DNA of 64,000 bases from Gemmatimonadales bacterium (GTDB taxonomy: Bacteria; Gemmatimonadota; Gemmatimonadetes; Gemmatimonadales; GWC2-71-9): positions 1,912 to 65,911 of the forward strand of contig JBKJMX010000001.1 in assembly GCA_046596135.1 (NCBI GenBank). Direction: 5' to 3'. A program made the position numbers and the translations under genes. Positions within the stretch are counted from its first letter, which is position 1. Each line of letters starts with the position of its first letter. The notes beneath the pieces are model-generated. The model worked only from the letters and a program-made list of their open reading frames with translations. It was not told where the DNA came from and did no database searches. Positions 15,130 to 47,660 of the stretch are shown here, one piece after another.

Positions 15130-16031
15130 CCCCGCAACTCCACCCCTGCAGCTCGCTCAGCGACCCGGATCGGGTCGAGATAATCGGCCGTTTCACCCAG
15201 GTCGGCGCGCAGGGTGCGGAACTGTTCCCGGGCATGGGCGAGCACCGGGTCGCTGACGCCAAGTTCCTCCGCGAGTTCGTGGGCGATCCCGATGTCCTTC
15301 TCCAGCAACGCCAGGCGGAAAAGCCGCGGCCAGAGCCCGGTCAGCACCCGTTCTGGCACCAGGGCCTCGCTGACGAACGACCGTCCGCTCGATGCATTGA
15401 GCACCTCGACCATGGCGCGGGGCTCCACGCCGGCCCGGGCCAGCGTGACCATCCCCTCAGCGACCGCCAGGATGTGCACCGCGAGAAGCCCATTATTGAC
15501 CGCCTTCATCGCGTGACCCGCCCCGACGGGGCCGAGATGCACGACCTTCGCGGCGAATGGCGCGACGATATCCCGGGCACGGCTGACATCCGCTTCCGTC
15601 CCGCCGCACATAACAGTGAGCTGACCCGTCGCGGCGAGCGGTGGTCCACCACTCACCGGGGCGTCAACAAACCCAACGTCGACGGCGGCAAGCATCCCGG
15701 CCAACCGCCGGGAGGTGGCCGGGTCGCCGCTGGTGCAGTCGACGACGATCGATCCCGGTCGCAACCCCTGCAACAGCCCCTCCGGCCCGGCGAGGATCGC
15801 CTCGACGTCGGCCGAGGTGGGAAGACAGGTGATCACGGCGTCGCAGGACTCGGCGAGGCTCCGGGGCGACAGCGCAACGGTCACGCCGGCATTGGCCTCG
15901 GCGAATGCGGTGGCCGTGGCGGCCGTGCGGTTCCATACCGTGAGCTGGTGCGCGGCGGCACAGCGGGCGGCCATCGGCGTCCCGATGGCGCCAAGGCCGG
16001 CAAAGCCGACGCGGAGCGAAGTGGAGGACAT
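15126..16031 (-). CDS. NAD(P)-dependent oxidoreductase, 3-hydroxyisobutyrate dehydrogenase family
   Basis: Start MSSTSLRVGFAGLGAIGTPMA (Rossmann G-x-G-x2-G). DAPVSGG and GAGHAMKAVNN motifs. The listed 16355 start adds an Arg/His-rich extension that overlaps dinB. Confidence 0.85.
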   Translation of the reverse strand: MSSTSLRVGFAGLGAIGTPMAARCAAAHQLTVWNRTAATATAFAEANAGVTVALSPRSLAESCDAVITCLPTSADVEAILAGPEGLLQGLRPGSIVVDCTSGDPATSRRLAGMLAAVDVGFVDAPVSGGPPLAATGQLTVMCGGTEADVSRARDIVAPFAAKVVHLGPVGAGHAMKAVNNGLLAVHILAVAEGMVTLARAGVEPRAMVEVLNASSGRSFVSEALVPERVLTGLWPRLFRLALLEKDIGIAHELAEELGVSDPVLAHAREQFRTLRADLGETADYLDPIRVAERAAGVELRG

Positions 16032-23281: not shown

Positions 23282-25138
23282 ATGACCGAGACATCCGGCG
23301 CACCCCGAGCTGCCCCCACCGTTGACGAAGCGCGCGCTGTCGCTGAAGCCGCGCGAGAAACGGAATGGACTGCACCGAGCTTCGTGAGGGAGCTCTTCGA
23401 TGGCCGCCTCCGCCTCGCCCTCATTCATCCCTTCCCCGAGCCCGACCCCGCCGACCTCGCCCGCGCGCAACCGTTCCTCGATCGGCTCGAGGCGTTCATG
23501 GCGACCGAGGTCGACAGCGACGCCATCGATCGCGACAGCAAGGTGCCCCAGTCAGTAGTCGACGGGCTCCGCGACATCGGTGCATTCGGGATCAAGATCG
23601 CGCAGGCGTACGGCGGTCTCGGCCTTTCGCAATACTCGTACACTCATGCTATCGCACTTGTGACCTCGCAGGACGGATCGCTCACTGCGCTGCTTTCGGC
23701 GAGCCAGTCGATCGGGGTGGCCGTTCCGCTGACGCTGTTCGGCACCGATGAACAGAAGCAGCGCTATCTCCCCCGCCTCGCCGCCGGTGCGATCTCGGCG
23801 TTTGCCCTCACCGAAACGGAGGTCGGTTCCGACCCCGCTGGCCTCACCACCGTGGCCGAGCTTTCCGCCGATGGTACGCACTGGCTGCTCAATGGCGAGA
23901 AGCTGTGGTGCACCAATGGTCCGGTCGCCGAGGTGATGGTTGTGATGGCGCGCACGGGAAAACGCATCACTGCGTTCGTGGTCGAGGCGGAGTGGGAGGG
24001 GGTCGAGGTTGTGCACCGACTCGCCTTCATGGGGCTGCGCGGGATCGAGAACGGCGTGATGCGCTTCACCAACGTTCGGGTTCCGGTAGAGAACGTCATC
24101 TGGGGCGAGGGAAAGGGGTTGAAGCTGGCCCTGATAACCCTCAACACGGGGCGGCTCACCCTCCCCGCTTCGGGCGCCGCGGGCGCCAAGCGCGCACTGG
24201 AAATCACCCGCCGTTGGGCGGCGGAGCGGGTGCAGTGGGGGAAGCCGATCGGCCAGCATGACGCCGTCGCGCAGATGCTCGGCACCATGGCAGCCGACAC
24301 CTTCGCCATGCAGGCAGTGAGCGACCTCGCATCGTTGCTTGCCGACCGGCACGATGCCGACATCCGCCTCGAGGCGGCCATGGCGAAGCTGTGGAACTCG
24401 GAGGTGGGAAGCAGGATCATCGACGACTGCCTGCAGATTCGCGGCGGCCGGGGGTACGAAACCACCGATTCTCTTCGGCTACGCGGCGAGCGTCCGGACC
24501 CCGTCGAGCGGATGTACCGCGACTTCCGGATCAACCGGATCTTCGAGGGATCGAGCGAGATCATGCGCCTGTTCATCGCCCGCGAGGCGGTGGATACCCA
24601 TCTGCAGGTGGCCGGTGACCTGATCGACCCACGGAAGCCCACGGGCAGCCGGCTGCGGTCGCTCGCCCGCGCCGCGGCGTACTACGTGACGTGGTACCCG
24701 AGGCACTGGTTCGGCATGACCTTCCTGCGCCACGGTGAGTTCGGTACGCTCGCCACACACGTGCGGTTTGTCGAGCGTGCGTCGCGTCGACTCGCGCGCA
24801 CACTCTTTCATGCGATGGTGCGCTTCGGGCCGAAGCTCGAGCAGCGGCAGTCGGTGCTCTTCCGCCTCGTCGATGTCGGCGCAGAACTCTTTGCAATGAG
24901 TGCGGCCTCCAGCCGGGCACACCAACTCGCGAAGGCCGGGAACCCGAACGCCGTCGAACTCGCCGACATCTTCTGTCGCCATGCGCGGCAGCGGGTCAAT
25001 CGCCTACTGGCGGAGGTGTATGGTCCCGACGATGTCGCGACCTACCGGACCGCGCAGCGCGTACTGGCTGGTGATCACGCCTGGGTCGAATCGGGCATGG
25101 TGCGCGCCGTCCCGCCGGACGGCGGCCGGTCAGGGTAG
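23282..25138 (+). CDS. acyl-CoA dehydrogenase family protein (long form with C-terminal extension)
   Basis: ACAD motifs (FALTETEVGSDPAG, KLWCTNG, QIRGGRGYET, RINRIFEGSSEIM). An alternative start is the ATG at 23201, inside the last heptamer unit, which has a GGAG 5 nt upstream. Confidence 0.85.
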   Translation: MTETSGAPRAAPTVDEARAVAEAARETEWTAPSFVRELFDGRLRLALIHPFPEPDPADLARAQPFLDRLEAFMATEVDSDAIDRDSKVPQSVVDGLRDIGAFGIKIAQAYGGLGLSQYSYTHAIALVTSQDGSLTALLSASQSIGVAVPLTLFGTDEQKQRYLPRLAAGAISAFALTETEVGSDPAGLTTVAELSADGTHWLLNGEKLWCTNGPVAEVMVVMARTGKRITAFVVEAEWEGVEVVHRLAFMGLRGIENGVMRFTNVRVPVENVIWGEGKGLKLALITLNTGRLTLPASGAAGAKRALEITRRWAAERVQWGKPIGQHDAVAQMLGTMAADTFAMQAVSDLASLLADRHDADIRLEAAMAKLWNSEVGSRIIDDCLQIRGGRGYETTDSLRLRGERPDPVERMYRDFRINRIFEGSSEIMRLFIAREAVDTHLQVAGDLIDPRKPTGSRLRSLARAAAYYVTWYPRHWFGMTFLRHGEFGTLATHVRFVERASRRLARTLFHAMVRFGPKLEQRQSVLFRLVDVGAELFAMSAASSRAHQLAKAGNPNAVELADIFCRHARQRVNRLLAEVYGPDDVATYRTAQRVLAGDHAWVESGMVRAVPPDGGRSG

Positions 25139-25690
25139 CGCCGGACTCGCCAGCTCGCCGGTGGGATCGAGGGCGCGCTCGTAACGTACTCCTGCGCTGA
25201 AGTTTGCTGGTCCACGGTAGGCGACTTCGTAGACCGCAAGGCGATCGGGCAGGTGTTCCATCAGCACCATGCGACGCGGCGCCCCAGCGGGACCGGCCTC
25301 GATGCGCAGTGTCAGCGCACCGAGTTGCAGCCTCCTGGCATACACGACCGTGCGGGAGCTGTCGGCCTCCTCGACGTACACTTGCCACTGCTGCCCGTCA
25401 TCCCACGCCGGCCGACCGTGCACCATCTCCACCCGTGCGGCAATGACGACGCTTTCGTCCGCGCCATCGCCGTCAATGTCGCCCAACGCGGTGCGGTGAT
25501 AGTTCCAGCCATCCGTGCCAGCGACGGCGGGCGCTCGACCGGAATCGATGAGCACCACTGTCTCTACCGGTGCCGTGATGGCTCCTGAATCGACCGCTGC
25601 CGGTTCCGGAGCGTCGGCGCCTGCGCAGGCACCCACCAGCGCGACCGCCACGATAGCCGTGACAGCGAGTCGCGTAGTCATTCGGGACAT
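25130..25690 (-). CDS. hypothetical lipoprotein
   Basis: MSRMTTRLAVTAIVAVALVGACAG lipobox and a DIDGDGADE Ca-binding-like motif. An alternative ATG at 25681 gives an ATGA overlap with the upstream gene. The listed 26062 start is an Arg-rich extension. Confidence 0.6.
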   Translation of the reverse strand: MSRMTTRLAVTAIVAVALVGACAGADAPEPAAVDSGAITAPVETVVLIDSGRAPAVAGTDGWNYHRTALGDIDGDGADESVVIAARVEMVHGRPAWDDGQQWQVYVEEADSSRTVVYARRLQLGALTLRIEAGPAGAPRRMVLMEHLPDRLAVYEVAYRGPANFSAGVRYERALDPTGELASPALP

Positions 25691-26262
25691 CCGACCACGA
25701 GCACCTTGTCGACCAGCGTGTTGCGCTGCAGCACGGAGCGGACAAGTTCGTCGATCGACTCGACCGCCGCGCCGCGGTGGGCGTCGAGGCGGAAGGAGAG
25801 TCCGCATTGTGACGGGATGGTCACGAACAGCCGGCCTTCCCCCTCGATCGCGGTGGCGCCGGGCCGGGCAAGCAGTTCGTCGAGTTCGGTGCCGACGCCG
25901 AGTGAATCGGCAGTGCGCCACCTCGGATCGGTCACCATCACGCTTCGGACGGTGTCGCCCACGACCCATCCGACCAATCCTCCGCTGTCGGTGCTGGTGC
26001 GGAGCTCCCGCACCATCATGCCTTCCGGGCCCGGTACAACCGTGTCGACCAAGGCCGGGCAACCGGCGCGGGCGCTACCGGCCGACATCCCGATCTGGAA
26101 GCAACCGACCCCGCTGCCCGACATAGCCTGAATAGCCGGGGTCGAATCGATCGCAACGGGGGGCGGCGAAGCAGAATCCACCGGTTCGGGGGTTCTGTCC
26201 CCTGACCCACAGGCGGCCACGAACGCGGCAACGGCGACCAGTGTCGACACTCTCGGCATCAA
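25678..26262 (-). CDS. hypothetical lipoprotein
   Basis: MMPRVSTLVAVAAFVAACGSG lipobox. No recognisable catalytic motifs. Confidence 0.6.
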   Translation of the reverse strand: MMPRVSTLVAVAAFVAACGSGDRTPEPVDSASPPPVAIDSTPAIQAMSGSGVGCFQIGMSAGSARAGCPALVDTVVPGPEGMMVRELRTSTDSGGLVGWVVGDTVRSVMVTDPRWRTADSLGVGTELDELLARPGATAIEGEGRLFVTIPSQCGLSFRLDAHRGAAVESIDELVRSVLQRNTLVDKVLVVGCPE

Positions 26263-26370
26263 TCCTCCTGTGGTGGGGTCCTGCCAGAACAGACGTCCGA
26301 AGGGCCTCGATCCCCACGGATTGACGCCCCCCGTTGACTTCCCGGCACCTTCGCCACAACTTCGGTCACC

Positions 26371-26433
26371 ATGATTTCACGCACCTGCGGCCATCACGTC
26401 CATCACCACCACGGAGCTTCCGGGGCGGGTTGA
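26371..26433 (+). CDS. putative his operon leader peptide (MISRTCGHHVHHHHGASGAG)
   Basis: 20-codon mini-ORF with 6 His in 7 consecutive codons (26392-26412), about 90 nt upstream of hisG on the same strand. No clear Shine-Dalgarno sequence. Confidence 0.6.
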   Translation: MISRTCGHHVHHHHGASGAG

Positions 26434-26468
26434 TGTCGTGTGGCCGGTAAACGGACAGCGAATCCATC

Positions 26469-26500
26469 AACGCCGACCCTTGGTCGGCGTTCGTGTTTCT
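26469..26500 (+). terminator. putative his attenuator (intrinsic terminator)
   Basis: AACGCCGACC-TT-GGTCGGCGTT, a perfect 9-10 bp GC-rich stem, followed by CGTGTTTCTGT. Lies between the leader ORF and hisG. The upstream GTTGATG (26429-35) can pair with CATCAAC (26465-71), which overlaps the 5' arm. Confidence 0.55.
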
Positions 26501-26522
26501 GTCACTCGAAACACCGCCGAGC

Positions 26523-27419
26523 ATGGGTCGAGGAGAGTCGGTGAACCTCGAGACGAATGACGGCGGGCTCCGGCTGGGGCTGCCGAAGGGACGCATGCAG
26601 GCAGAGATATTCACGTTGCTCGATGCCGCGGGGCTGACCGTGCGCGCGGGGCAACGCGAGTACCGGCCGATGATCGCGGGCAGCGGGTTCAACGTGAAGA
26701 TCCTGAAACCGCAGAGCATCGTCGAGATGCTGGCGCTCGGGTCACGCGACGTCGGCTTCGCCGGCGCCGACTGGGTCGCCGAACTCGACGCAGAGCTGGT
26801 CGAGGTTCTCGACACCGGCTTCAACCCGGTTGACCTGGTCGCGGCGGCACCAGCTGCGCTGCTGGCCCGGGGTCCACTCGACAGCCAGCCTGGCCTCGTG
26901 GTCGCGACCGAGTACCCGCGTCTCACCACGGCCTGGCTTCAGGACGGCGGCATCGACGCCAGCATCGTGCATTCCTGGGGCGCGACAGAGGTCTTTCCCC
27001 CCGACGACGCCGACCTGATCGTCGACAATACATCGACCGGTGCCACGCTGATCGCCAATAGCCTCGTGATCGTGGATACCCTGATGCGCTCGTCGACTCG
27101 GCTCTATGCGCATCCCCGTGCGCTGGATGACGCGGCGCGGCGTGCCGACATCGAGCGACTGGTGATGATGCTCACGTCGGTGCTCGAGGCACGCGGTCGG
27201 GTCATGGTCGAGGTCAACGTGACGCCTGATCGCCTCGAGGCGGTGTGCGCAGCGCTGCCATGCATGCGCGAGCCCACCATTGCCGCACTCCACGCCTCTG
27301 CTGGCTTTGCGATCAAGGCCGCTGTGCCCCGCGCCGATCTGGCGCGACTGGTGCCGTGCATCAAGGCTGCGGGCGGATCGGACATCGTGATCACGGCGCT
27401 CACCCACATCGTGCCATGA
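26523..27419 (+). CDS. hisG: ATP phosphoribosyltransferase, long form with C-terminal regulatory domain
   Basis: LRLGLPKGRMQ, LKPQSIVEMLALGSRDVGFAGADWV and DNTSTGATL motifs, plus a HisG_C-like tail. An alternative GTG start at 26541 follows AGGAGAG. Confidence 0.9.
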   Translation: MGRGESVNLETNDGGLRLGLPKGRMQAEIFTLLDAAGLTVRAGQREYRPMIAGSGFNVKILKPQSIVEMLALGSRDVGFAGADWVAELDAELVEVLDTGFNPVDLVAAAPAALLARGPLDSQPGLVVATEYPRLTTAWLQDGGIDASIVHSWGATEVFPPDDADLIVDNTSTGATLIANSLVIVDTLMRSSTRLYAHPRALDDAARRADIERLVMMLTSVLEARGRVMVEVNVTPDRLEAVCAALPCMREPTIAALHASAGFAIKAAVPRADLARLVPCIKAAGGSDIVITALTHIVP

Positions 27420-29125
27420 CCACGTCACCGCTTCCCGCACCCGCAACGCGAATCGTCGCCACTGGCGCATACGCGCCGCGTCGCCCCGCTGGACCGATCG
27501 ACCTCGATCTTGCGGGCACAGAGGGCTCGCGCGCCAATGCGTCGCCCGCCGACACCGCGGTTCGTGCCGCGCTGTCCCGCTACCCCGACGCCACGCCACT
27601 GCGCAACGCACTCGCCGCCCGCCACGACGTCGACCCCTCGCAGGTGCTGATCACTGCAGGGGCGGATGAGGCGCTGGAACGGCTCTTCCGGGCTTACCTC
27701 GAGCCGACGCGCGAGGTGATCCTGACGGACCCGACATTCGAGATGCTCCCCCGATATGCGCAGGCAACTGGGGCGACCCTCGTACGGGTTCCGTGGACGA
27801 CATCACGATTTCCCCTCGACACGCTGCTCGCTGCGATCACGCCGAATACCGCGATGATAGCAGTGGTCACGCCCAACAATCCCACCGGTGCGGTGGCGAC
27901 AACGGCAGACATTATCACGATCCACGACGCCGCGCCGGCCGCCGTGGTGGTCGTTGACCTCGCCTACGTCGAGTACGCCGACAGCGATCCCACCGCCGAA
28001 CTTCTCGCGTTTCCCCGCGTGGTGATCGTGCGCACGTTCTCCAAGGCATGGGGGCTGGCGGGCGCGCGTGTCGGGTACGCGTTGGGATCAGCGGACGTGA
28101 TCGCGGCAGCAGTGACCGCCGGCAACCCGTACCCCGTGTCGTCACCGTCGCTCGACCTCGCGCGCGAAGCTCTTGAAACCGGCGAGACAGCAATGCGCGA
28201 CCGAACCCAGTGGGTACGCGAGCGGCGAGGCCAATTGCTGGCATCGCTCGAGACCGCCGAAGTTCTCGCGATCCCGACGCAGGCAAATTTCGCGTGTGTG
28301 TCGCCCGCCAACCCCAGGTGGCTCTGGGATGGGCTGGCGGGACTCGGGATCGGGACCCGGTTGATCGAAGCCGCCTCGCCATCCCATGTTCGCATCACCG
28401 TGCCCGATGATGACGCTGGTTGCGACCGGGTCGCGGACGCGCTGCGATGCATCACCGATCCCGAATGCATCGTGTTCGACATGGACGGCGTGCTTGCCGA
28501 CGTGTCGCGCTCCTATCGGACCGCCATCATCGGCGCCGCCGCCGAGTTCGGGGTCACCGTGGCGCCGGCGGACATCCGGGCCATGAAGGAAGCCGGGAAT
28601 GCCAACGATGACTGGGCCCTGACCGCCGCATTGGTCGCCGCGCAGCGCGATGACGTCCCGTTTGCCGAGATCAAGGCGGCATTCGAGCGATTGTATCAGG
28701 GCACCGCGTCCACGCCCGGGCTTCACCTCACGGAAACGCTGCTTGTCGATCCCGGATTGCTGCGCCGGCTCGCCGCGAGGCTCCCGCTCGCGATTGCCAC
28801 CGGACGGCCGCGTGCCGATGCGGAGCGCTTCCTCACCCGATTCAATGTGCGCGACTGCTTCACGGCATGCGTGACGTGCGACGACGGACCCGGCAAACCT
28901 GATCCGTTTGCCGCCGCAGAGGCACTCCGGTTGGTCGGAGCGCAGCGCGCATGGATGATCGGCGACACTCCCGACGATGTCCGTTGTGCGCGCCGCGCCG
29001 GCCTCCTCCCGATCGGCATCCTCGCCCCCGGCGACCCGGGATCGCGGATGACTGCAGCACTTCTCGGTGCGGGCGCGGCGCGCGTCCTTTCTTCACTCGA
29101 CGACCTGGAGATCCTGCTACCATGA
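27416..29125 (+). CDS. hisC: histidinol-phosphate aminotransferase fused to a HAD-superfamily phosphatase domain
   Basis: ATGA overlap with hisG. The N-terminal approx. 350 aa is a class-II aminotransferase ([20 protein letters not shown]). The C-terminal approx. 220 aa carries HAD motifs I-IV (FDMDGVL, IATG, GKPDP, GDTPDD). Confidence 0.85.
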
Positions 29126-29712
29126 ATTCGAGAACCGCCGAATACTCCCGCGCCACCCGCGAGACCGACGTCACCGTGAGCATCTCCCTCGACGGCGCTG
29201 GCGAATCGAGCATCGCGACCGGAATCGGGTTCCTCGATCACCTGCTCACGGCGCTTGCCATGCATAGCGGGATGACGATCGATGCCAAGGTCACCGGCGA
29301 CCTGCACGTCGACGATCACCACACCGTCGAGGATGTCGCATTGGCCCTGGGCACCGCCTTCGACCGTGCACTCGGCGACCGGCGGGGCATCACCCGCTTC
29401 GGAAGTGCGTACGCACCGCTCGATGAGGCACTGGCGCGCGCGGTGATCGACCTCTCCGGGAGACCGTTCGCCCGGGTCGAACTCGGCCTGCGCCGCGAAC
29501 AACTGGGCGGGCTGTCCTGCGAGAACATCCCACACGCGCTCGCATCCTTTGCCACGGCGGCGCGACTCACGTTGCATGTCGATGTGATCGCCGGGGAGAA
29601 CGATCATCACCGCGCCGAGGCCGCGTTCAAGGCCGTGGCGCTGGCGCTTCGTGATGCGGTGCGACAGACGGGCAATGCTGCCGTTCCCAGCACGAAGGGG
29701 TCACTCACGTGA
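29122..29712 (+). CDS. hisB: imidazoleglycerol-phosphate dehydratase (monofunctional)
   Basis: ATGA overlap. [34 protein letters not shown] and [12 protein letters not shown] motifs. 196 aa with no phosphatase domain. Confidence 0.92.
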
Positions 29713-30305
29713 CCAGGTCGATTGCGATCGTGTCAACCGGGACCGCCAACGTGGCGTCGATGGAGGCCGGCCTCCGCCGAGCCGGCGCCGAACCATTCCG
29801 CACCTCCGACCCCGATCAGGTGGCCGAGGCCTTGGGCGTCGTCATCCCCGGCGTCGGAACCTTTGCCGCCGCGATGACGCACCTTCGCGAAACTGGGATG
29901 GATGCCGCGCTGCGCGCCCGCTTCCGCTCGGGCCGTCCTGTCCTGGCCGTCTGCCTCGGTCTGCAGCTTCTGGCCCGGACGAGCGAGGAATCACCCGGCG
30001 AGACCGGGCTCGGCATTGTCGACGTCGACGTCGTCGGGCTGCCTGCAGGTGCCACGCGGCCGCAGCTCGGATGGAACGAGGTCGTCCCGTCGATGCCCGG
30101 ATTGGTCGAGGGCGGTCACGCCTACTTCGCCAACTCATACTGCCTGCGCTCGGAAACCGATGATTGGCAAGCGTCACATGCACATCACGGCGACCGGTTC
30201 GTCGCGGCCATGCAGCGGGACCGTCAGCTCGCCTGTCAATTCCACCCCGAGTTGTCCGGGGCGTGGGGTGTGGCGTTGCTCACCCGGTGGGTCGCCGCAT
30301 GCTGA
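29709..30305 (+). CDS. hisH: imidazole glycerol phosphate synthase, glutamine amidotransferase subunit
   Basis: GTGA overlap. VIPGVG, catalytic Cys in AVCLGLQLL, and CQFHPE. Confidence 0.9.
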
Positions 30306-31051
30306 CTCGACGGATCATTCCCTGTCTCGACACCAGCGATGGCCGGGTGCTCAAGGGCCGACAGTTCCGCGAGATGCGCGACGTCGGCGATCCCGCCGAG
30401 CTTGCCGCCCGCTACGACGCCACCGGCGCCGACGAACTGGTGCTGCTCGATGTGACCGCGACAACAGGAGACCGGCCGCATGCTGCCGAAACCGTGCGGG
30501 CGGTGCGCCGCGAACTCACCATCCCGCTCACCGTGGGTGGCGGCGTGCGCAGTGTGGGTGATGCCGAGCGCCTGCTTGACAGCGGCGCCGACAAGGTGGC
30601 GCTCAACAGCGCGGCGCTGGTCCGCCCCGGTTTGGTCACGGCGCTCGCAGACCGGTTCGGCACCCAGTGCATCGTGGTCGCAATCGATGCGCTGCGGGTG
30701 GGGGAGACGTGGATGGTGCGTGCGAGGGCCGGATCGGAGGACGTGGCGCGCGATGCGATCTCCTGGGCCGCGGAGGCGGAACAACTCGGCGCTGGTGAGA
30801 TCCTGCTCACCAGCATCGACCGCGACGGCACACGCAGCGGATTCGATGTCGCGCTGCTTGCGGCGGTGACGAGCCGCGTGTTCATCCCGGTGATCGCGTC
30901 GGGCGGTGCCCATGATGCATCGGATTTTGTTGCCGCGTTCGGTGCGGGCGCCGACGCCGTGCTCGCGGCGTCGATCTTTCACGATCAGGACACCACGGTC
31001 GTTGAACTCAAGCGAACGCTCGCCGCATGTGGCGTGGAGGTCCGGCCATGA
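30299..31051 (+). CDS. hisF: imidazole glycerol phosphate synthase, cyclase subunit
   Basis: Start [11 protein letters not shown] overlaps the hisH stop by 7 nt. Motifs DELVLLD, PLTVGGGVRS, ADKVALNSAA and GAGEILLTSIDRDGT. Confidence 0.92.
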   Translation: MLTRRIIPCLDTSDGRVLKGRQFREMRDVGDPAELAARYDATGADELVLLDVTATTGDRPHAAETVRAVRRELTIPLTVGGGVRSVGDAERLLDSGADKVALNSAALVRPGLVTALADRFGTQCIVVAIDALRVGETWMVRARAGSEDVARDAISWAAEAEQLGAGEILLTSIDRDGTRSGFDVALLAAVTSRVFIPVIASGGAHDASDFVAAFGAGADAVLAASIFHDQDTTVVELKRTLAACGVEVRP

Positions 31052-33588
31052 TCATCCCGTCCATCGATATCCGTGGCGGCGAGACCGTGCAACTGGTGGG
31101 CGGGCGCGATCTGGCAATCGCGGCGGGCTCGCCCGACCCATGGCTGGAGCGGTTTGCCTTGGCAGGCGAGATCGCCATTGTGGACCTTGATGGTGCGTTT
31201 TCCACCGGCGACCAGCAGGAGGTGATCGCAGGTCTTTGTGAGCGGGCGTCGTGCCGGGTTGGCGGCGGCATTCGCGACTACGACCGTGCGCGCCGCTGGC
31301 TCGACGCCGGCGCTGCGCGGATCGTACTGGGGACAGCCGCCGAGCCCGCCCTGTTGTCCAAGCTGCCGCGGGACCGCACGATCGCGGCACTCGACGCCAT
31401 CGATGGCGAGATCGTGGTCGACGGATGGAGGCGCCGCACTGGCAGAGGTGTCGTCGAGCGTCTCCGCGAATTGCGCCCACATGTCGGCGGGTTCCTCGTC
31501 ACGTTCGTCGAGCGCGAGGGCCGGCTGGGTGGCATCGATGCCGATGCCATCCGCCCGCTGGTTGAGGCCGCGGGCGACGCCCGCCTGACGATTGCGGGTG
31601 GGGTCACGACGGCTGGCGACGTGGCGTTGCTCGATCAGATGGGGGCCGACGCCCAGGTCGGCATGGCGTTGTACACCGGCGCGCTCACCCTTGGTGACGC
31701 CATCGGCGCTCCGCTCCGCTCCGATCGCGCCGACGGCCTCTTCCCCACCGTGGTGACCGACGAGCGCGGTGTCGCGCTGGGACTGGCCTATTCAAGCCAC
31801 GCGAGCTTGCGGCGCGCCGTGGACGAACGCCGCGGCGTCTATCACTCACGACGCCGAGGACTCTGGGTCAAGGGCGAGTCCTCCGGTGCCACGCAGGAGT
31901 TGCTCCGTGTTGACCTTGACTGCGACCGCGACACCCTGCGATTCGTGGTGCGCCAGCACGGCACGGGGTTCTGCCATCGGGACACGGCCACCTGCTGGGG
32001 CAACGGTAGGGGCGTAGCTGCGCTCGAATCCACGCTTCGACAGCGGCGCGGGGCCCCCGAGCCGGGATCGTACACGCAGCGCCTCTGGGATGATCCCGAC
32101 CTGCTCGCAAGCAAGCTGGTGGAGGAAGCCCGCGAACTCGCCGAAGCCGTGGACCCCGAGCATGTGGTGCGAGAGGCCGCCGACGTGACCTACTTCACGG
32201 GCGTGGCACTCCGGCGCGCCGGCGCGTCGTTCGCTGATGTCGATCGCGAACTCGACCGTCGCGCGCTCCGGGTTGCCCGCCGGCCAGGTAACGCGAAGCC
32301 TGAAACAGCCACGGAACCATCAGGTGGTTTGTCGTTCACCGGACTTCGACGGGTCGGACCCGGGAACCTCCCCACGAGGATCGCCAGTGCCGTCGATCCC
32401 GCCACATCGGCACGCGCGACCGCGATCGTGGACGCCGTGCGGCTCGGCGGCGATGCTGCGCTTGCTGGGTTCGCACGGGAACTCGACGGCTGGACCGGCG
32501 GCAATTCACTGGTCATCGGTGCGGATGCACTGGCGGCCGCCCTCACCGACCTTGACCCCGCGGTGCGCGAGCTGCTTGACAGGGTCGCGGGTCGGATCCG
32601 CGAATTCGCCGTGGCGCAGCGCGGCACGATCGCCGAGCTGGACACTGCCGTCACTGGCGGGCGCGCCGGGCACCAGATCATCCCCGTGTCACGCGCTGGC
32701 TGTTACGCGCCGGCGGGACGCTTTCCGCTTCCGTCATCGTTGCTCATGGGGGTGGTCACCGCGCGGGCGGCGGGCGTCTCGGAGGTTTGGGTGGCGACAC
32801 CGGCACCATCGCCGCTCATGCTCGCCACTGCCGCGATTGCTGGCGCGACCGGCGTGATCGCTGCGGGGGGAGCGCACGCGATCGCAGCACTCGCTTACGG
32901 CACCGAGACGATCGCGGCGTGCGACGTGATCGTGGGGCCCGGCAGCAAGTGGGTCACGGCCGCGAAACGTTGCGTGGCTGGCGACGTGGCGATCGACTTC
33001 CTCGCCGGCCCCTCGGAGCTCCTGGTGGTGGCAGATGCATCCGCAGCTGTGGATGCAGTGGCTGCAGACTTGCTTGCGCAGGCGGAGCACGATGCCGACG
33101 CGTTGCCAATTCTCATCGGCACCACGAGTGACGTGCTCGATGCGGTGGACGCAGCGCTGGTCCGGCAACTCGCGGAACTTCCGGCGCTATCGCCGGCGCA
33201 CCAATCATTGCATGGCGGCTTCGCGGTGCTGTGTGCCACCGAACAGGAAATCATCGCGACCATCGATGCGATCGCGCCCGAGCACCTTCAGTTGTCGGTC
33301 GAGATGCCCGGTGCCCTCGCCGCGCGCTGCACCAATGCGGGCGCGATGTTCCTCGGCAACCAGTCGGCGGAGGTGTTCGGGGACTATGGGGCGGGCCCGA
33401 ACCACATCCTTCCCACCGGTCGCGCGGCACGACACACCGGAGGGCTTTCGGTGATGCACTTCCTCCGGATGCGTACCTGGTTGGCGTTGGATCAGCCGGA
33501 ACGTCTGGCGCTTGACACGGCGATGCTGGCGAGACTCGAGGGCCTGGAGGCTCACGCTCGGGCGGCCGAGATGCGCCGGCCAGGATAA
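31048..33588 (+). CDS. four-domain fusion HisA - HisI - HisE - HisD (ProFAR isomerase / PR-AMP cyclohydrolase / PR-ATP pyrophosphatase / histidinol dehydrogenase)
   Basis: ATGA overlap with hisF and a single uninterrupted 846-aa frame. HisA: IIPSIDIRGG...VGGGIR...GGV. HisI: GLWVKGESSG...DCDRDTL...CH. HisE: YTQRLWDD...KLVEEARE. HisD: GCYAPAGRFPLPSS, GPGSKWVTAAK, AGPSE, AQAEHD, GDYGAGPNHILPT. Confidence 0.88.
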   Translation: MIIPSIDIRGGETVQLVGGRDLAIAAGSPDPWLERFALAGEIAIVDLDGAFSTGDQQEVIAGLCERASCRVGGGIRDYDRARRWLDAGAARIVLGTAAEPALLSKLPRDRTIAALDAIDGEIVVDGWRRRTGRGVVERLRELRPHVGGFLVTFVEREGRLGGIDADAIRPLVEAAGDARLTIAGGVTTAGDVALLDQMGADAQVGMALYTGALTLGDAIGAPLRSDRADGLFPTVVTDERGVALGLAYSSHASLRRAVDERRGVYHSRRRGLWVKGESSGATQELLRVDLDCDRDTLRFVVRQHGTGFCHRDTATCWGNGRGVAALESTLRQRRGAPEPGSYTQRLWDDPDLLASKLVEEARELAEAVDPEHVVREAADVTYFTGVALRRAGASFADVDRELDRRALRVARRPGNAKPETATEPSGGLSFTGLRRVGPGNLPTRIASAVDPATSARATAIVDAVRLGGDAALAGFARELDGWTGGNSLVIGADALAAALTDLDPAVRELLDRVAGRIREFAVAQRGTIAELDTAVTGGRAGHQIIPVSRAGCYAPAGRFPLPSSLLMGVVTARAAGVSEVWVATPAPSPLMLATAAIAGATGVIAAGGAHAIAALAYGTETIAACDVIVGPGSKWVTAAKRCVAGDVAIDFLAGPSELLVVADASAAVDAVAADLLAQAEHDADALPILIGTTSDVLDAVDAALVRQLAELPALSPAHQSLHGGFAVLCATEQEIIATIDAIAPEHLQLSVEMPGALAARCTNAGAMFLGNQSAEVFGDYGAGPNHILPTGRAARHTGGLSVMHFLRMRTWLALDQPERLALDTAMLARLEGLEAHARAAEMRRPG

Positions 33589-34875: not shown

Positions 34876-35096
34876 GTCGGGAATGTAGCGGACGGCGGAT
34901 GGGGGGGCGAAAGCACTGGCCCAGGGCCGGTCCGACGCGGCGATGTCGGGGACAGCGCCGCCCAAGCGTCTACATTGTGACGAAGGTTCAGCGCACTCAT
35001 TCGTGCCGTGAGATGTCACCACCGGCCCCGCACCCCGCCGGCGTTGGGCGGAGCACGTTCTTTCCCGTGAATGCTGTGCCCATGCCTGGAGAGTTA

Positions 35097-38000
35097 ATGG
35101 TTTCACGCGCGCCCGGCTGGACGACTGACGACAGCACGCTGCAGGACCCGATCCGCGCGGAGCTGTTCGGCCCCGAGCGGCTGGAGCAACACGCGGCGTC
35201 GCTGGCGCACGCGCAGCAGGTCACCCGGATCGCGATCAAGGGGGGCCCGCTCCTCGAGCGGGTGCGCGACAACCGGCGGGTCCTCCGCGCCATGCAGGCG
35301 CAGATCGCCGAGGCGGTCACCGACGAGCGATGGATCACGCCGTCCGCGGAATGGCTGCTCGACAACTTCTACATCGTCGACGAACAGCTCCGGGAAATCC
35401 GGGACGACCTTCCGCAGGGTTTCTACCGCGAGCTGCCCAAGCTGATCGATGGCCCGCTTGCCACCCTGCCCCGCGTCTACGGGATCACCTGGGCATTCAT
35501 CGCACATACCGACAGCCGGTTCGATCCCGACCTGCTCATCCGGTTCATTGATTCATACCAGCGCGTCGATCCGCTGACGATCGGCGAGCTCTGGGCGATC
35601 GCGATCACGCTTCGCGTCGTCCTCGTGGAGAACCTCCGGCGGTGTGCCGAGGCAATCGCGCGGAGCATGCACGAACGCGAGCGGGCCGATCGCCTCGCCG
35701 ATGAGCTGCTCGGGGCCGAGGGTGACCAGGCGTCGACCTCTGCCGCACTGCTCCAGCGCTACGAAGACATCCCGATCTCGCGGGCGTTCGCGGTCGAACT
35801 GGTGATGCGGCTGCGGGACCGCGATCCCGCCGCCACCCCGGCGCTGAAGTGGCTCAACGAGCGGCTGACCCGGGAGGGATCGTCGGCGGACGATCTCGTC
35901 AACGAGGACCACCACCGTCAGGCAGCGATGACCGTGACGGTGCGCAACATCATCACGAGCATGCGCCTGGCGTCGGCGTTCGACTGGGCCGTGTTCGTCG
36001 AGCGGGTGAGTCTCGTTGACGAGCTCCTCCGTACCCACCCGACCTATCCGGCCATGGATTTTGCGAGCCGTGATGCCTACCGGCATGCGATCGAGGACCT
36101 CTCCCGCCGATCCAGCCGATCCGAACTGGAGGTGGCGCGCGAGGCATTGCGGCGGGCCGACCCCGCCGGGGAAGCGCCGGGCGGGATCGCACGCGATGCC
36201 CGGCAGGACGACCCGGGCTATTACCTCTTCGGCCGCGGGCGACGCGAGTTCGAGCACGAGGTTGGATACCACCCGTCGGCCATGCGTCGCATCTTCCGCG
36301 CGTACCTCGACGTGGCGGTGCCGGGCTACCTCGGGTCGATCGTTGTGCTCACGGCGGTGGTCCTTGCCATCCCCATCGTGCTGGCCCGCTCTGCGGGGGT
36401 GGCGCCATTCGATCTGGTGGTGCTGGCGCTCCTCGCGCTGATCCCCGCGTCTGATCTCGCTATTGCGCTGCTCAACCGGAGCGTGACGGCGATCGTGCCG
36501 CCCTCGCTGCTACCCCGTCTCGAGCTCAAGAACGGCATCCCGCTGGAACTGCGCACCCTCGTCGTCATCCCGACCCTCCTCACGTCTCCTGAGGAGATCG
36601 AGGAGACGGTCGAGCGCCTCGAGGTGCACTACCTCGCCAACCCTGACGGCGATGTGCACTTCGCAATCCTCTCCGACTGGACCGACGCGGCCACCGCACG
36701 GATGCCTGGCGACGAGGCCATGCTCAGTGCCGCGCAGCGCGGTATTGCCCGACTCAACGCGCGCCATGGCGAGGTCCGATTTCACCTGTTGCACCGGCGT
36801 CGGACGTGGAACGGGAGTGAAGGCACGTGGATGGGGTGGGAGCGGAAGCGGGGAAAGCTGCACGAACTCAACCGGCTGCTCCGCGGCGCCACCGACACCA
36901 CGTTCGTATCGGTTGACGGCAGCCCGGTCGCTGCGCCGCAAGGCGTGCAGTACATCATCACGCTGGATAGCGACACCCGGATCCCGATCGATGCCGTGGC
37001 GGGCCTTGTGGGCACGATGGCTCATCCGCTCAATCGTCCGCTCTTCGATGATGCCAGCCGTCGCGTGGTCGATGGATACGCCATCCTGCAGCCGCGTGTG
37101 ACGCCCCCGCTGCCTGGCCGCGCCGGCTCGCTCTACCAGCAACTGGTGTCGGGCTCGCCCGGGATCGACCCATACGCGTCGGCGATCTCCGATGTCTACC
37201 AGGACATCTTCGGCGAAGGATCGTTCACCGGAAAGGGGATCTACGACCTCGACGCGTTCGAGGCGGCGCTGGCAGGGCGGGTGCCGGAGAATCGCCTGCT
37301 CAGCCACGATCTCTACGAGGGGATCTTCGCCCGCGCCGGGCTCGTCACCGACATCGAGGTGTTCGAGTACGCACCCGCGAGCTACACCGTTGCCGCCGCG
37401 CGCCAGCATCGGTGGGTCCGTGGCGACTGGCAGCTCCTGCCGTGGTTGTTCGCACGCGGCCTGCCGCTTGTGGCCAGATGGAAGATCCTCGACAACATGC
37501 GGCGCTCACTCTCCGCCCCTTCCGCCTTCCTGACGATCGTGCTGGCGTGGAGCCTCGCCGACGTCGCACCAATGCGATGGATGCTGTTCATCCTGGCGAC
37601 CATTGTCATTCCCGCACTTATCCCGGTGGCTGCTGGCGTGGTTCCCCGCGGCCGCGGGATCTCGAAGCGAAGCCATGTCCGCGCCGTGCGGCGCGACCTC
37701 GAGGCCGCCGGTTGGCACACCGCCGTCACCGTGACCATGCTGGCGCACCAGTCATGGGTCATGGGGGATGCGATACTGCGGACGCTGGGTCGCGTGATCA
37801 TCACGCGTCGCCACCTGCTGCAGTGGACCACGGCGGCGCAATCGGCGAATAGCCATCGCAACCGCATCCGGGACTTCATGGGTCGGATGGCCGGCGCGCT
37901 CGTCCTCACCGCCGCCGCAACCGTCGCGGTGGCATGGAACCAGGCTCCCCGCTGGCAGACGGCCGTTCCACTCCTCCTGCTGTGGGCGTTCTCGCCGGTG

Positions 38001-41000
38001 ATCGCACATGCACTCAGCATCTCGCAGCTCAGCGCCCGTACCACCGCCGTCTCCGATGCTGACGCCCGCACGCTTCGCCTGATCGCGCGGCGGACCTGGC
38101 GATTTTTCAGCACGTTCGTCACGGCCGGCGACAGATGGCTCGCGCCCGACAACTTCCAGGAGACCCCGCAGCCGGTCGTCGCGCACCGCACGTCACCGAC
38201 GAACATCGGCCTGTCGCTGCTGGCGAACGTCTCGGCCCGCGACTTTGGCTGGATCGGATCGGTGACCATGCTCGACCGTCTCGAGGCCACCCTCTCCTCG
38301 GTCAGGCGTCTGGAGTTCTGCCGCGGCCACCTCTACAACTGGTACGAGACCACCGAAGGGCGGGCGCTGGAGCCACGGTACATCTCATCGGTCGACAGCG
38401 GCAACTTCGTCGGCTGCCTGATCGCCACCGGCAACGCCTGTCGCGAACTGCTCGATCGACCCGCCATGCCGACGTCCTCGATGACCGGTATCCTCGACAC
38501 GGTGGACCTGCTGCGCCGGGCGGTGCGCAACGTGGGCGATCACGCCGACGTCGAGCGAAACGTGCGGCGCCGGATCGACGAGCAGATGGCCCGGATCATG
38601 GAACGCGCGGCCGTCGCCGCCGTGACGCCGCATGATCAGGTAGCGCGGCTCGAAGCGCTCTCCGTCGATGCCCGCGCCCTGCTCGACATGGCGGAGGCAG
38701 CCGGCCTGCAGTCGGTGGGGGAGCACGACGTGGCGGCGTGGGCCGGCGCCCTCATCGACGATGTGGCGAGCCAGCTCATGGATTTCGACCGCCTCGCGCC
38801 GTGGGTGCGGCTTCGACTGGGCGGCGCCGCCAACGCCTTTGCCCCGCTGCTCGCCGGTCCCACGCTCGCGGAGCTGCCGGCGCGCTGCACGCTGGTCGCG
38901 CGCTCGCTGGCGGCCCTCCGGGCCTCGGGCGATGCCGCGCCCCTGGACGTCGACCTCGAAAGTCTCGGGATCGCCGTCGAGCAATGTGAGCGCTCGGCGC
39001 GATCCCTGGTGATTCGGATCGCGGCGCTCGCCTCGGACACGACGCGGATGGTCGATGCGACGGAGTTCGGCTTTCTCTTCGATCCGCTGCGCAAGCTCTT
39101 CTCGATCGGATACCGTGTCGCCGAGGATTCGCTCGACCCCGGTCATTACGACCTCCTCGCCTCCGAGGCACGCCTGCTCAGCTACATCGCCATCGCGAAG
39201 GGCGACGTACCCGTCGAGCACTGGTTCCGGCTGGGCCGATCGCTGACGCCCGTGGGCCGTGACTCGGTGCTCATGTCGTGGTCGGGATCGATGTTCGAGT
39301 ACCTCATGCCGGCGCTGCTGATGCGAACCCCCGTGGGCAGCCTGATCGAGCAGACCTGCCGCTTGGTGGTGAATCGCCAGATCGCGTACGGCGAGGAGCG
39401 CGACATCCCATGGGGCGTGTCGGAATCCGGGTACAGCGCGCGCGATCTCGAGATGACGTACAAATATTCCGCCTTCGGCGTCCCCGGACTCGGCCTGAAG
39501 CGGGGACTCGGCGACGCGATCGTGATCACCCCGCACGCCACCGGTTTGGCATCGATGATCGACCCTGGCGAGGCGGCACGGAACTTTGCCGAGCTGCGAC
39601 GGGTGGGTGCATCCGGTCCCTATGGCTTTTACGAAGCCGTGGATTTTACCGCCTCCCGTCGCCCGCCAGGCGAGCGGGGTGCCGTCGTGCACAGCTACAT
39701 GGCGCACCACCAGGGCATGATGCTGGTGGCGATCACCAACGCGCTCCATGATGGCGCGATGCGCTCACGCTTTCATGCGGAGCCGATGGTGCAGGCGTCC
39801 GAGATGCTCCTGCAGGAACGGACACCACGCGATGTCGCGGTGGCGCGCCCACGCGTCGAGGAGTTCACGGCGGTCGGCGATGTCCGCGAGTCGGTGCCAG
39901 CAGTGTCGAGAACGTTCTCGTCGCCACACGGCACCACGCCCCGAACCCATTTGCTCTCCAACGGCCGGTACGCCGTGATGCTCACCTCGGCCGGGGGGGG
40001 ATACAGCCGGTGCAATGGACTCGCCGTAACCCGCTGGCGAGAGGACGTCACGTGCGACGACACGGGCTCGTTCGTGTTCCTGCGCGACACGGAGAGCGGC
40101 GAATCCTGGTCTGCCGCGTTCCAGCCCTCAGCTCGCGAGGCATCGGCGTGGGAACTCGCCTTCCAGGAGGATCGAGCGGAGCTCAGCCGACGTGATGGTA
40201 GCATGACCACCCGCCTCGAGGTCATCGTATCGGCTGAGGACGATGCCGAACTGCGGCTCGTCTCACTCACCAACCATGGACGCACCACCCGCGACATCGA
40301 CGTGACGTCGTATGCAGAGGTCGTCCTGGCCCCCCATGCCGCCGACGTGGCCCACCCCGCGTTCTCGAACCTGTTCGTCAGCACCGAGGTGGTGAGCGAG
40401 GCGAATGCGCTCCTGGCGACACGCCGGCAACGATCACCCGACGATCCCGAGGTGTGGCTGGCGCACGTGGTGGCGACATCCGACGGAAGCGACACGATGC
40501 AGTGGGAGACTGATCGGTACCGCTTCGTGGGCCGGGGCAACACTCTCCGCACGGCCGACGGGGCGGTGAGCGGGCGCCCACTGTCCAACACGACGGGGCC
40601 CGTGCTCGATCCGATTGTGAGCCTGCGCCGACACGTGACCATCCGTCCCGGGCGCACCGTCCGCCTCTGCTTCTCGACCATGGTGGCGGAATCGCGGGAC
40701 GCGGTCCTCGACCTGGCCGACAAGTACCAGGACCTCACGATCTTCGAACGGGCCGGCACACTCGCGTGGACACGCGCCCAGGTCCAGATGCACCACGTCG
40801 GCATCGGTCCCAACGAGGCACACCTCTTCCAGGAGCTCGCCGCCCCGCTGCTCTATGCGGATCGAGCGATGCGGGCACCTGCCGCGATCATCGCGCGACA
40901 GCACGGCGGCGCGTCGATGCTCTGGCCGCACGGCATTTCAGGCGACCTCCCGCTGGTGCTGGTGACGATCGAAGACGCGGAGGATGTCGGGCTGATCCGT

Positions 41001-46415: not shown

Positions 46416-47660
46416 TCACGGGGTGATGCGCCACAACTCGCCCCGTGCCTCGTCAGTGACGACGTACAGCGCGCCGTCAGTTCCCTCGCGAACGTCACGC
46501 ACTCGCTGCTGGCGATCGGTCAGGAGGTGCTCCTCGCCGGTCACCCGATCGTTGGTGATCACGAGGCGAACCAGTGCCGCGGCACCGAGCCCACCGATGA
46601 ACAGGTTGTCCTTCCACTCGGGGAACCCCCTGCCGCTGTGGAACTGCGCACCCGACGGCGCGATCACTGGGTCCCAATAGTACACCGGCTGGACATACCC
46701 GTCGCGGGCCGTCACCGCACCGCTGATCGCCATTCCGCTGTACTCCTCGCCGTAGCTCACCAGGGGCCAGCCATAGTTGGATCCGGCGACGATGAGATTC
46801 ACTTCGTCGCCGCCGCGCGGGCCATGCTCGATGGTCCAGAGTCGGCCGGACGCGTCGATGGCGGCGCCCTGGATATTGCGATGTCCGAGCGTCCAGATCT
46901 CGGGCCGCGCGCCGGACGTTGTCGCAAAGGGATTGCCCGGAGGCACCGAGCCATCGGGCGCGATTCGCACGACCTTCCCCATGTGACTGCCGAGTTGCTG
47001 GGCCTGGGGTCGCATCTCGCGATCCGACCGCTCGCCCAGCGTTACGAAGAGCATTCCGTCTGCTCCGAAGGCGAGGCGGGAGCCGAAGTGCAGGTTGCCA
47101 TCGTAGGTGGGCTGGGCGCGGAAGATCACGCTCACGTTTTCGACGCGGCGTTGGTCGATCGAGAGTACGCCCCGCGCCACCGATGTCGCGTTGCCGCCGG
47201 TCCGTGGCTCGGCGTAGCTCCAGTAGATCATCCGGTCGGCCGCGAAGTCGGGGCTCAATGCTACGTCGAGCAATCCGCCCTGCCCTTTCGCACTCACCGC
47301 AGGCAGGCCCTCGAGCGGTGAGCCCAGCGCGCCCGTCGCCGACACGATCCGCATCCACCCCGGCCGTTCAGTCACGAGCAGCGACCCGTCAGGCATCGGT
47401 TCAACGGCCCACGGATGGTCGAGCCCGGTCGCGACGACCGTGACGGTGAACCTGGTGGAGGACGTCGCCGCACAGGCCCGAGTCTGGCCGACAAATGCTG
47501 GCTGCTGACCAGCGGCATGGGGAGCCCGGGTGTCAACCGGCGTGCATCCGCCCGGAACCTTCGACACCGGGCCGCCGTTGTCAGCGGCTGGGGGAGAACA
47601 CGCCGCAAGGACGACGCCGGCGGCAACGGCGCAGAAGGTGACGGGAATCCTGGCTGTCAT
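46416..47660 (-). CDS. PQQ-dependent soluble sugar (aldose/sorbosone) dehydrogenase lipoprotein
   Basis: Lipobox VLAAC. LDHPWAVEPMPDGSLLVTERPG, GHRNIQG, EHGPRGGDEVN and GSNYGWP motifs. Confidence 0.85.
   Translation of the reverse strand: MTARIPVTFCAVAAGVVLAACSPPAADNGGPVSKVPGGCTPVDTRAPHAAGQQPAFVGQTRACAATSSTRFTVTVVATGLDHPWAVEPMPDGSLLVTERPGWMRIVSATGALGSPLEGLPAVSAKGQGGLLDVALSPDFAADRMIYWSYAEPRTGGNATSVARGVLSIDQRRVENVSVIFRAQPTYDGNLHFGSRLAFGADGMLFVTLGERSDREMRPQAQQLGSHMGKVVRIAPDGSVPPGNPFATTSGARPEIWTLGHRNIQGAAIDASGRLWTIEHGPRGGDEVNLIVAGSNYGWPLVSYGEEYSGMAISGAVTARDGYVQPVYYWDPVIAPSGAQFHSGRGFPEWKDNLFIGGLGAAALVRLVITNDRVTGEEHLLTDRQQRVRDVREGTDGALYVVTDEARGELWRITP

Follow-up and report, generated by a model that had tools for sequence, protein, structure and literature searches.

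A histidine-codon leader and terminator hairpin ahead of hisG in a Gemmatimonadales bacterium: a probable ribosome-mediated attenuator of the his operon

The locus in front of hisG

The window analyzed here is a stretch of 64,000 nucleotides from a Gemmatimonadales bacterium (GenBank assembly GCA_046596135.1, contig JBKJMX010000001.1, positions 1,912 to 65,911 of the forward strand), which has a G+C content of 66.6% and carries a complete his operon preceded by a short open reading frame (ORF) rich in histidine codons and by a GC-rich hairpin. We examined this leader and its hairpin as a candidate attenuator of the operon; all positions are those of the window, and the coordinates of the features are collected in Table 1. 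A preliminary description, made from the sequence without database searches, had reported a 20-codon ORF with six His in seven consecutive codons, and both were seen when the frame was read at 26371-26433: six of the seven codons at 26392-26412 encode His. A run of seven codons with at least six His occurs once in the six frames of the 64 kb, as compared with 0.0016 expected from the CAY triplet frequency. The hairpin begins 35 nt past the leader stop codon and is directly followed by CGTGTTTCTG; the perfect 9-10 bp GC stem with a U-rich run that had been described is present, with 10 pairs. It is the sole terminator-like site in 25900-26900 (shuffles 0.4), and, judged by its sequence, a putative intrinsic terminator is present between the leader ORF and hisG. 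Since the upstream gene at 25678-26262 lies on the other strand, the hairpin is not the terminator of that gene.

The hisG gene is of the long form, with the Pfam domains HisG and HisG_C and with TIGR00070 and TIGR03455 above their cut-offs. Given that ATG 26523 is AAG in the close relatives L001 and L003 and that the GTG position is ATG in L004, the start codon of hisG is most likely GTG 26541 rather than ATG 26523. The spacing had been put at about 90 nt from the leader ORF and 30-50 nt from the hairpin to hisG; these distances require revision, as with a start at GTG 26541 the leader stop lies 107 nt and the hairpin 50 nt before the gene.

Table 1. Positions of the leader, its putative pairing regions and the adjoining his operon in the window
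Feature	Positions	Strand	Remarks
-35-like hexamer TTGACT	26334-26339	+	sequence reading; TTGACT also in L001-L004
Weak -10-like hexamer CAACTT	26357-26362	+	A2 and T6 kept; 17 nt past the -35 box, 8 nt before the leader ATG
Leader ORF MISRTCGHHVHHHHGASGAG	26371-26433	+	ATG 26371, TGA 26431-26433; 20 codons plus stop
Region 1 (putative sensor)	26388-26415	+	His codons 26392-26412 and flanks; predicted 5' strand of 1:2
Region 2	26419-26446	+	last leader codons, stop and 13 nt beyond; predicted to pair with region 1, or with region 3 via 26422-26435
Spacer hairpin	26436-26461	+	nested within the predicted 2:3 antiterminator; sequence unconserved beyond close relatives
Region 3	26464-26480	+	predicted 3' strand of the antiterminator; overlaps the entire terminator 5' arm 26469-26478
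Terminator hairpin (3:4) AACGCCGACC-CTT-GGTCGGCGTT	26469-26491	+	10 perfect pairs (7 G-C), 3-nt loop
Interrupted U-rich tail CGUGUUUCUGU	26492-26502	+	sequence reading
Post-terminator hairpin GUGUUUC-N8-GAAACAC	26494-26515	+	the tail is its 5' arm
hisG Shine-Dalgarno (SD) sequence GAGGAG and start GTG	26530-26543	+	SD 26530-26535, GTG 26541-26543; sequence reading, relatives
his operon: hisG, hisC::HAD, hisB, hisH, hisF, hisA::hisIE::hisD	26541-33588	+	stop and start codons overlap; Pfam, NCBIfam

Conservation and reading of the leader

The closest HisG relatives of the window (95, 91, 89 and 79% identity) are in metagenome-assembled genomes labelled Gemmatimonadales. For a wider view, 80 loci were chosen by HisG protein similarity alone and the 500 nt before hisG were scanned; mini-ORFs with at least four His in eight codons were found at about 40 of the 80, under many phylum labels, and the terminator core GCCGRC..GYCGGC was present in 39 of 42 leaders of this set. 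A covariance model, R1, was built from 35 diverse leaders. It matched the window at 26374-26502 with 90.8 bits (E 1.8e-25), and its only other match at E<0.01 was the reverse strand of the same palindrome; small GC-rich terminator-like hairpins turned up in the same scan at 25105-25124, 15424-15447 and 47195-47214. At the protein-fetched loci, R1 scored at least 38 bits in 41 of 80, always just before hisG, and three more loci gave matches that were weaker or cut off. About 100 further loci were matched by R1 as well, each immediately 5' of a long-form hisG. As a negative control, 100 mostly chance loci were scored, of which 7 reached at least 50 bits, all 7 with hisG downstream. At leader-free loci, hisG often lay within about 35 nt of another same-strand ORF of at least 120 aa.

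DNA pattern searches gave a similar picture. With a specific pattern (four His codons, 35-65 nt, ACGCCGRCC-loop-GGYCGGCGT), 106 of the 119 matches listed had hisG 42-388 nt downstream, mostly at 42-160 nt, while 2 of those listed were at contig ends and about 11 were chance matches within long ORFs. The Halomonas matches to this pattern were likewise rejected as chance, being inside long ORFs with no hisG downstream, so that there is no cultured carrier among the matches listed. A looser pattern of three His codons and a GC hairpin was discarded, as it returned mostly chance sites in long ORFs of GC-rich genomes; 8 of its sites were real, all before hisG. Together, the element was found in front of long-form hisG in more than 100 genomes from about 10 phyla by label, these labels being the submitters' own and some of them doubtful. 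Carriers are labelled Gemmatimonadota, Acidobacteriota (Vicinamibacterales, Thermoanaerobaculia), Planctomycetota (Phycisphaerae, Planctomycetales), Acidimicrobiia, Fimbriimonadia/Armatimonadetes, Methylomirabilota, Krumholzibacteriia, Bdellovibrionota, Ectothiorhodospiraceae and others. The variant of the window lineage, GGGGCGGGTTGA..CAACGCCGRCCC, was found in 14 species representatives. Each of the 14 is a metagenome-assembled genome, and 12 carry the label Gemmatimonadota. L006 (labelled Coriobacteriia) and L007 (labelled Gemmatimonadetes), which come from one sample series, have identical leaders, and several Acidobacteriota-labelled genomes (L226, L250, L254, L264, L267, L277) carry the Acidimicrobiia-type peptide MNRLFAH.HHHHHPSWVG; these odd labels are likely to stem from binning error, labelling error or transfer.

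Aligning the regions upstream of hisG, which the preliminary description had proposed as a check, showed that relatives, and also far more distant genomes, share the mini-ORF with its His run and the hairpin. The same description had placed the element in a non-proteobacterial-looking lineage, but the family is not strictly non-proteobacterial, as some carriers are labelled Gammaproteobacteria (Ectothiorhodospiraceae). Palindromes of the form GCCGRC-N3-14-GYCGGC are common in the window (9 vs 3.4 expected), and one might therefore suspect a chance ORF beside a chance GC-rich palindrome; we give this practically no credence, as the His run by itself has the very low expectation given above and the entire arrangement recurs at more than 100 loci, by which such a reading is already refuted.

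The common plan in the relatives begins with a promoter directly before an ATG. The N-terminal codons are variable; then come 4-9 His codons and 5-6 further codons, a stop that is usually TGA followed by TGG, a variable spacer and the hairpin. For a finer comparison we retained 139 relatives' leaders, 124 of them unique, which were selected as short ORFs containing a His run. In the 124 unique leaders, the ORFs have 11-27 codons with 4-9 His, and 4-9 His codons were also counted in each of 87 representative relatives, where the distance from the last His to the stop is 5-6 codons in 52.

Boxes resembling promoter elements precede the leader ATG at a constrained distance. The -10 box was defined as a hexamer in which A2 and T6 are kept and which ends 6-10 nt ahead of the leader ATG. 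The hexamer at this position is CACCTT, CACTTT or CAGCTT in relatives, with close relatives retaining CAnnTT; in more distant relatives it is TACAAT, TATAAT or TAGAAT, with unchanged spacing. A TTGNNN -35 box with at least 4 of 6 matches was located 16-19 nt before the -10 box in 60 of 86 representative leaders, as compared with 2.1 in shuffles. A consensus scan also supported -10 boxes ending 7 nt (L026) and 6 nt (L011) before the ATG. An SD-like motif 5' of the leader ORF was seen in only 5 of the 86 leaders, and the window has no SD sequence upstream of its leader ORF. Given this lack of an SD sequence and a start codon shortly after the -10 box, the leader ORF is probably translated from a leaderless mRNA, with transcription likely to start on A26371 or no more than a few nucleotides away.

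The conservation of frame, start and stop, together with the free interchange of CAT and CAC (356 CAT to 384 CAC in the unique leaders), suggests indirectly that the leader ORF may be translated. The share of CAT among His codons is 48% in the leaders of the 124 relatives vs 35% in eight window genes; the higher share is in keeping with CAUCA having to pair with UGAUG, and the sensor may also favor the rarer codon. It could be argued that what matters is the His-rich peptide, which might be a small metal binder, with the hairpin as terminator of its gene and hisG transcribed separately, as His-rich peptides can bind metals and the C-terminal residues look conserved (the peptide frequently ends in GAG, VAG or RVG). 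We hold this to be very improbable. The N-terminus is unconserved even in close relatives, where it reads MISRTCG, MITRTRR, MSTRNRG or MNRLAFR; the element was seen only before hisG; and no separate promoter was detected between the hairpin and hisG. Moreover, in the last Gly codon the wobble base varies freely, whereas in the preceding codon it is fixed and covaries with the terminator arm, so that conservation of the C-terminus, on the evidence of these codons, tracks RNA pairing and not codon structure.

Alternative helices and the position of the ribosome

In alignment A1 (35 sequences) the terminator was paired at 98.3%, three pairs had changed on both sides, and controls with slid strands reached at most 56%; a search for covarying stems, also put forward earlier, thus found compensatory changes in this helix. 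In the tail, a pattern of UU, 4-5 nt and UUU is seen repeatedly across the alignment, and no sequence in A1 departs from T26498. The stem GCCGRCC/GGYCGGC is nearly invariant over about 10 phylum labels (e.g., L012, L050, L218 and L308), and the loop, the spacer and the N-terminus of the peptide drift. We propose that the invariance results from a three-way pairing constraint plus the near-palindrome GCCGGC, with a bound factor or transfer of a cassette as alternatives.

RNAalifold, unaided, predicted both the terminator and a second helix, 1:2 (UCAUCA:UGAUGG), with the five inner pairs of the latter present in 33-35 of the 35 sequences and the outermost in 29. In the window, this helix is predicted to join 26388-26415 with 26419-26446 at -32.8 kcal/mol (minimum free energy of 26385-26450). 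Its conserved heart is formed by the His codons CAUCA and the UGAUG that contains the leader stop codon, and this pairing explains the prevalence of UGA as the stop (70 of 87 leaders), frequently with UGG after it. Per sequence, the 1:2 duplex had a median energy of -16.0 vs -11.7 kcal/mol for shuffles.

This CAUCA:UGAUG pairing makes the His codons structural as well, and it could be taken to mean that the mini-ORF is untranslated, the CAY repeats being mere pairing partners in a structured RNA that senses tRNA-His (as a T-box does), histidine or a protein; the stem, unusually invariant for a plain terminator, could then point to a bound factor. We consider such a sensor improbable. In the 139 leaders the His run is in frame with an ATG 6-10 nt past the -10 box and the stop is at a fixed offset from the pairing core (it begins 1 nt 3' of GGYCGG in 70 of the 124 unique leaders), leader lengths differ by whole codons, and CAT and CAC swap freely. 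In addition, Rfam 15 gave no match in the window at the gathering score, in 26200-26650 at E values up to 10, or in 20 relatives at the gathering score; this holds for the T-box model (RF00230) and also for the His_leader model (RF00514), the 20 relatives including the Gammaproteobacteria-labelled L037.

When region 1 is masked, region 2 is predicted to pair with region 3 instead, 26422-26435 joining 26465-26480 in an antiterminator of 14 bp with bulges at G26472 and A26476; the segment 26413-26481 folds at -30.4 kcal/mol (minimum free energy), with the spacer hairpin nested inside. The universal core of 2:3 consists of GGYCGG, formed by the last two sense codons, and CCGRCC of the terminator arm. 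This core was paired at 88% in A1 and at 93.7% in A3, an alignment gathered with a DNA pattern that fixes the terminator, as compared with at most 61% in slid controls, and a single pair within it covaries (U-A 39, C-G 29, U-G 20), of which L050 and L076 are a clean example. The 2:3 duplex is also more stable than shuffles, with a median energy per sequence of -20.1 vs -14.6 kcal/mol (median z -2.0). Imposing the exact 2:3 register of the window on all lineages was rejected, as it gave 75% pairing and no covariation and a shift by one fits the others better; the register of the window lineage is shifted by one (GGGGCGGG), and a fixed register therefore under-counts its pairing.

The preliminary description had rested its antiterminator on the complementarity of GTTGATG (26429-26435), which includes the leader stop codon, to CATCAAC (26465-26471), and the two are indeed complementary at these positions. 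They form the central 7 bp of 2:3 and a real, lineage-specific part of it; alone, however, they amount to -5.8 kcal/mol and trim only 3 terminator base pairs by the U tract, and they are not the universal core, with 45% of cells paired over 99 leaders. The broader point, that the region of the stop codon is complementary to the terminator 5' arm, held up as conserved among leaders, with the one covarying pair.

How the position of a ribosome might select between these helices was assessed by folding with a mask reaching from -14 to +13 nt, counted from the first nucleotide of the codon in the P site, an assumed size drawn from established footprint and toeprint data. In the window, the probability of the terminator was 0.96 with no mask and 0.97 with the stop codon masked (26414-26441), with an antiterminator probability of 0.00 in both cases. 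Masking a His codon lowered the terminator to 0.25-0.90 and raised the antiterminator to 0.32-0.61, depending on the codon. This is the outcome anticipated by the preliminary description, in which a ribosome at the stop codon permits termination and one stalled at the His codons allows the antiterminator. Over 87 leaders, the probability of three stem base pairs was 0.95 with the ribosome at the stop and on average 0.75 when stalled; it dropped by more than 0.2 in 32 of the 87 and changed by more than 0.2 in the opposite direction in none (Wilcoxon p = 3e-15). These folding models predict a mutually exclusive antiterminator that depends on ribosome position. Equilibrium folding was not accepted as proof of a switch, given that the shift is partial only.

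The segment between the terminator and hisG raises another alternative, namely that attenuation is translational, alone or in addition, with the ribosome position governing access to the hisG SD and start through helices 4:5 and 5:6. In the window, 26509-26521 can pair with the terminator 3' arm and tail (-23.1 kcal/mol), CGCCGA (26515-26520) can pair with UCGGUG including the GUG start, GCCGGC-like or CCGACC-like boxes recur between terminator and SD in many relatives, and there is a precedent in the mycobacterial poly-Cys leaderless small ORFs, of which Ms5788A acts on translation through SD sequestration (10.1101/834739). Relatives also have a hairpin, of differing sequence, at the position of the post-terminator hairpin at 26494-26515. 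Across 81 leaders, though, the SD and start were unpaired with a probability of 0.44 when region 4 was free vs 0.42 when it was sequestered (p = 0.28), the 4:5 duplex was only weakly better than shuffles (median z -0.9), and most leaders have the hairpin 40-100 nt before the SD with a U-rich tail after it. The post-terminator segment was no more stable than shuffles, and a role of the hairpin there in SD access found no general backing. We therefore consider a translational mechanism unlikely and reject the second layer as a general feature; it may exist in the lineage of the window.

Probable attenuation of the his operon and comparison with known leaders

Taken as a whole, the conservation of the leader, the covariation in the terminator, the complementarity of the stop-codon region and the folding under ribosome masks all favor the histidine attenuator proposed in the preliminary description, and we judge it probable that transcription of the his operon is attenuated by the element in a ribosome-mediated way that follows the classical four-region logic (1:2, 2:3 and 3:4). 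The earlier model is supported in this respect; it had overlooked the 1:2 helix and the start on a probably leaderless mRNA. The analysis shows which sequence elements are present and how far they are conserved, complementary and regularly spaced, and it is from these that we infer translation of the ORF, the transcription start, the termination and the response to histidine.

The proposed mechanism is as follows. Transcription would begin on the leader AUG or only a few nucleotides from it, and a ribosome would load on the 5' end without an SD sequence. When charged tRNA-His is plentiful, the ribosome would reach the UGA at 26431 and cover about 26414-26441, including the antiterminator strand 26422-26435. 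With region 2 covered, region 3 would pair with region 4, the terminator at 26469-26491 would form, and the polymerase would stop in the U-rich tail near 26496-26502. If the leader is not translated, 1:2 would form between the His codons and the stop-codon region, and here too the terminator would form. When tRNA-His is scarce, the ribosome would stall on the His codons at 26392-26412, covering region 1 and leaving region 2 free to pair with region 3 (26465-26480) as soon as this emerges, while region 4 is still to be synthesized. The terminator would then be unable to form at its base, and the polymerase would continue into hisG and the 7-kb operon.

Several points weigh against this attenuator model. 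The -10 box of the window is weak and was not called by the consensus promoter scan. The U tract (CGUGUUUCUGU) is interrupted, so that intrinsic termination may be inefficient or dependent on a factor. Covariation in 2:3 is confined to one pair, the remainder being conserved complementarity in a register that varies by lineage; as A3 was gathered with the terminator fixed, the invariance of the terminator in that alignment is by construction; and all of the carriers found are metagenome-assembled genomes. Finally, at equilibrium with a stalled ribosome the terminator is still dominant, with a mean probability of 0.75-0.81 over the 87 leaders. Relief must therefore rest on co-transcriptional kinetics, and the formation of 2:3 ahead of the synthesis of region 4 would provide it.

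The neighboring genes show some features of their own. The ATG of hisC::HAD overlaps the hisG stop as ATGA, and this ORF (27416-29125, + strand) fuses HisC, histidinol-phosphate transaminase, to a C-terminal HAD-type hydrolase resembling TIGR01548, which may be the histidinol-phosphate phosphatase. The operon ends in one ORF of 853 aa (31027-33588, + strand), a fusion with four activities composed of HisA (8-227), HisIE (230-413) and HisD (466-850), and an ORF of 2961 aa (34899-43784, + strand) lies downstream of the operon. On the other side, the divergent ORF at 25678-26262 (- strand) encodes 194 aa with no Pfam match and has an N-terminus, ..VAAFVAACGS, that resembles a lipoprotein signal.

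Classical attenuation is documented mainly in Proteobacteria and in some Actinobacteria and Firmicutes. The hisL leader (His_leader, RF00514) of Escherichia coli, Salmonella and other Gammaproteobacteria is like the window element in its operon, in a leader ORF with His codons and in the choice of terminator vs antiterminator before hisG, but has no detectable relationship to it in sequence or structure. hisL has an SD sequence and a 5' untranslated region, its His run is followed by only two codons, and its pairing segments number six (A to F). Unlike hisL, elements of the window type are apparently leaderless, with 5-6 codons past the run, four segments and a stop codon that takes part in both alternative helices. 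The closest architecture is that of the E. coli trpL attenuator, which shares the four regions, regulatory codons in region 1, a stop near region 2, and a terminator more stable than the antiterminator with a kinetic outcome; trpL differs in its amino acid, in being non-homologous and in its SD-dependent leader.

Leaders without a ribosome-binding site have a counterpart in Actinobacteria. According to the citation in PMC4046766, the Corynebacterium glutamicum ilvBNC leader peptide has no such site (Morbach 2000), and in this it and the poly-Cys leaders would resemble the window element with its probable leaderless start; both respond to amino acids other than histidine, neither is known to extend across phyla, and Ms5788A uses no terminator. 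A 2005 survey reported no RNA structure before the his operons of the Actinobacteria then available (PMC1262725). In Firmicutes, his attenuators have been predicted for the Bacillus cereus group, Peptostreptococcaceae and Erysipelotrichales (PMC9413887), and hisS/hisZ leaders are described for bacilli (PMC2965389). These resemble the present element in having a His-leader peptide with a terminator and antiterminator outside the enterobacterial family, and in being found by comparative genomics only; they differ in being of low GC, restricted to their lineages and unrelated in sequence, and they have not been reported as leaderless. The ilvB-OMG and related upstream-ORF motifs are multi-phylum structured RNAs in which an amino-acid-sensing upstream ORF acts as attenuator (PMC10272879); ilvB-OMG serves genes for branched-chain amino acids and is in Rfam, whereas the his element is absent from it. 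In the literature searched we found no description of the present family, though older surveys of His leader peptides could contain related predictions, and nothing on attenuators in Gemmatimonadota.

On balance, we somewhat favor the view that the window element belongs to a single uncatalogued family of leaderless histidine attenuator RNAs, tied to long-form hisG, having a near-invariant stem, and shared by genomes labelled Gemmatimonadota, Acidobacteriota, Planctomycetota, Acidimicrobiia, Armatimonadota, Methylomirabilota and Krumholzibacteriia and some labelled Gammaproteobacteria. The mechanism is a known one; the family is new, widely distributed, apparently leaderless and absent from Rfam. 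That absence is an annotation gap, which covariance model R1 can fill. For the operon itself, the element marks where it begins and supports the hisG start at 26541. The design is compact, in that the stop, the last sense codons and the His codons double as pairing strands, which makes it useful for the study of coding vs structural constraints. As one coherent family, the element would extend classical attenuation to about 10 phylum-level groups and, if it works as predicted, would rank with the most widespread attenuators that respond to an amino acid; its probable leaderless start bears on the extent and function of leaderless translation outside Actinobacteria and Deinococcus. The near-invariant stem might indicate a factor that recognizes it, or the horizontal spread of a cassette of hisG plus leader. 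The carrier phyla are mostly uncultured, and to our knowledge their gene regulation and transcription-translation coupling are almost unstudied; if true, the attenuator would imply tight coupling of transcription and translation from 70S ribosomes that load on a 5' AUG in these little-studied phyla.

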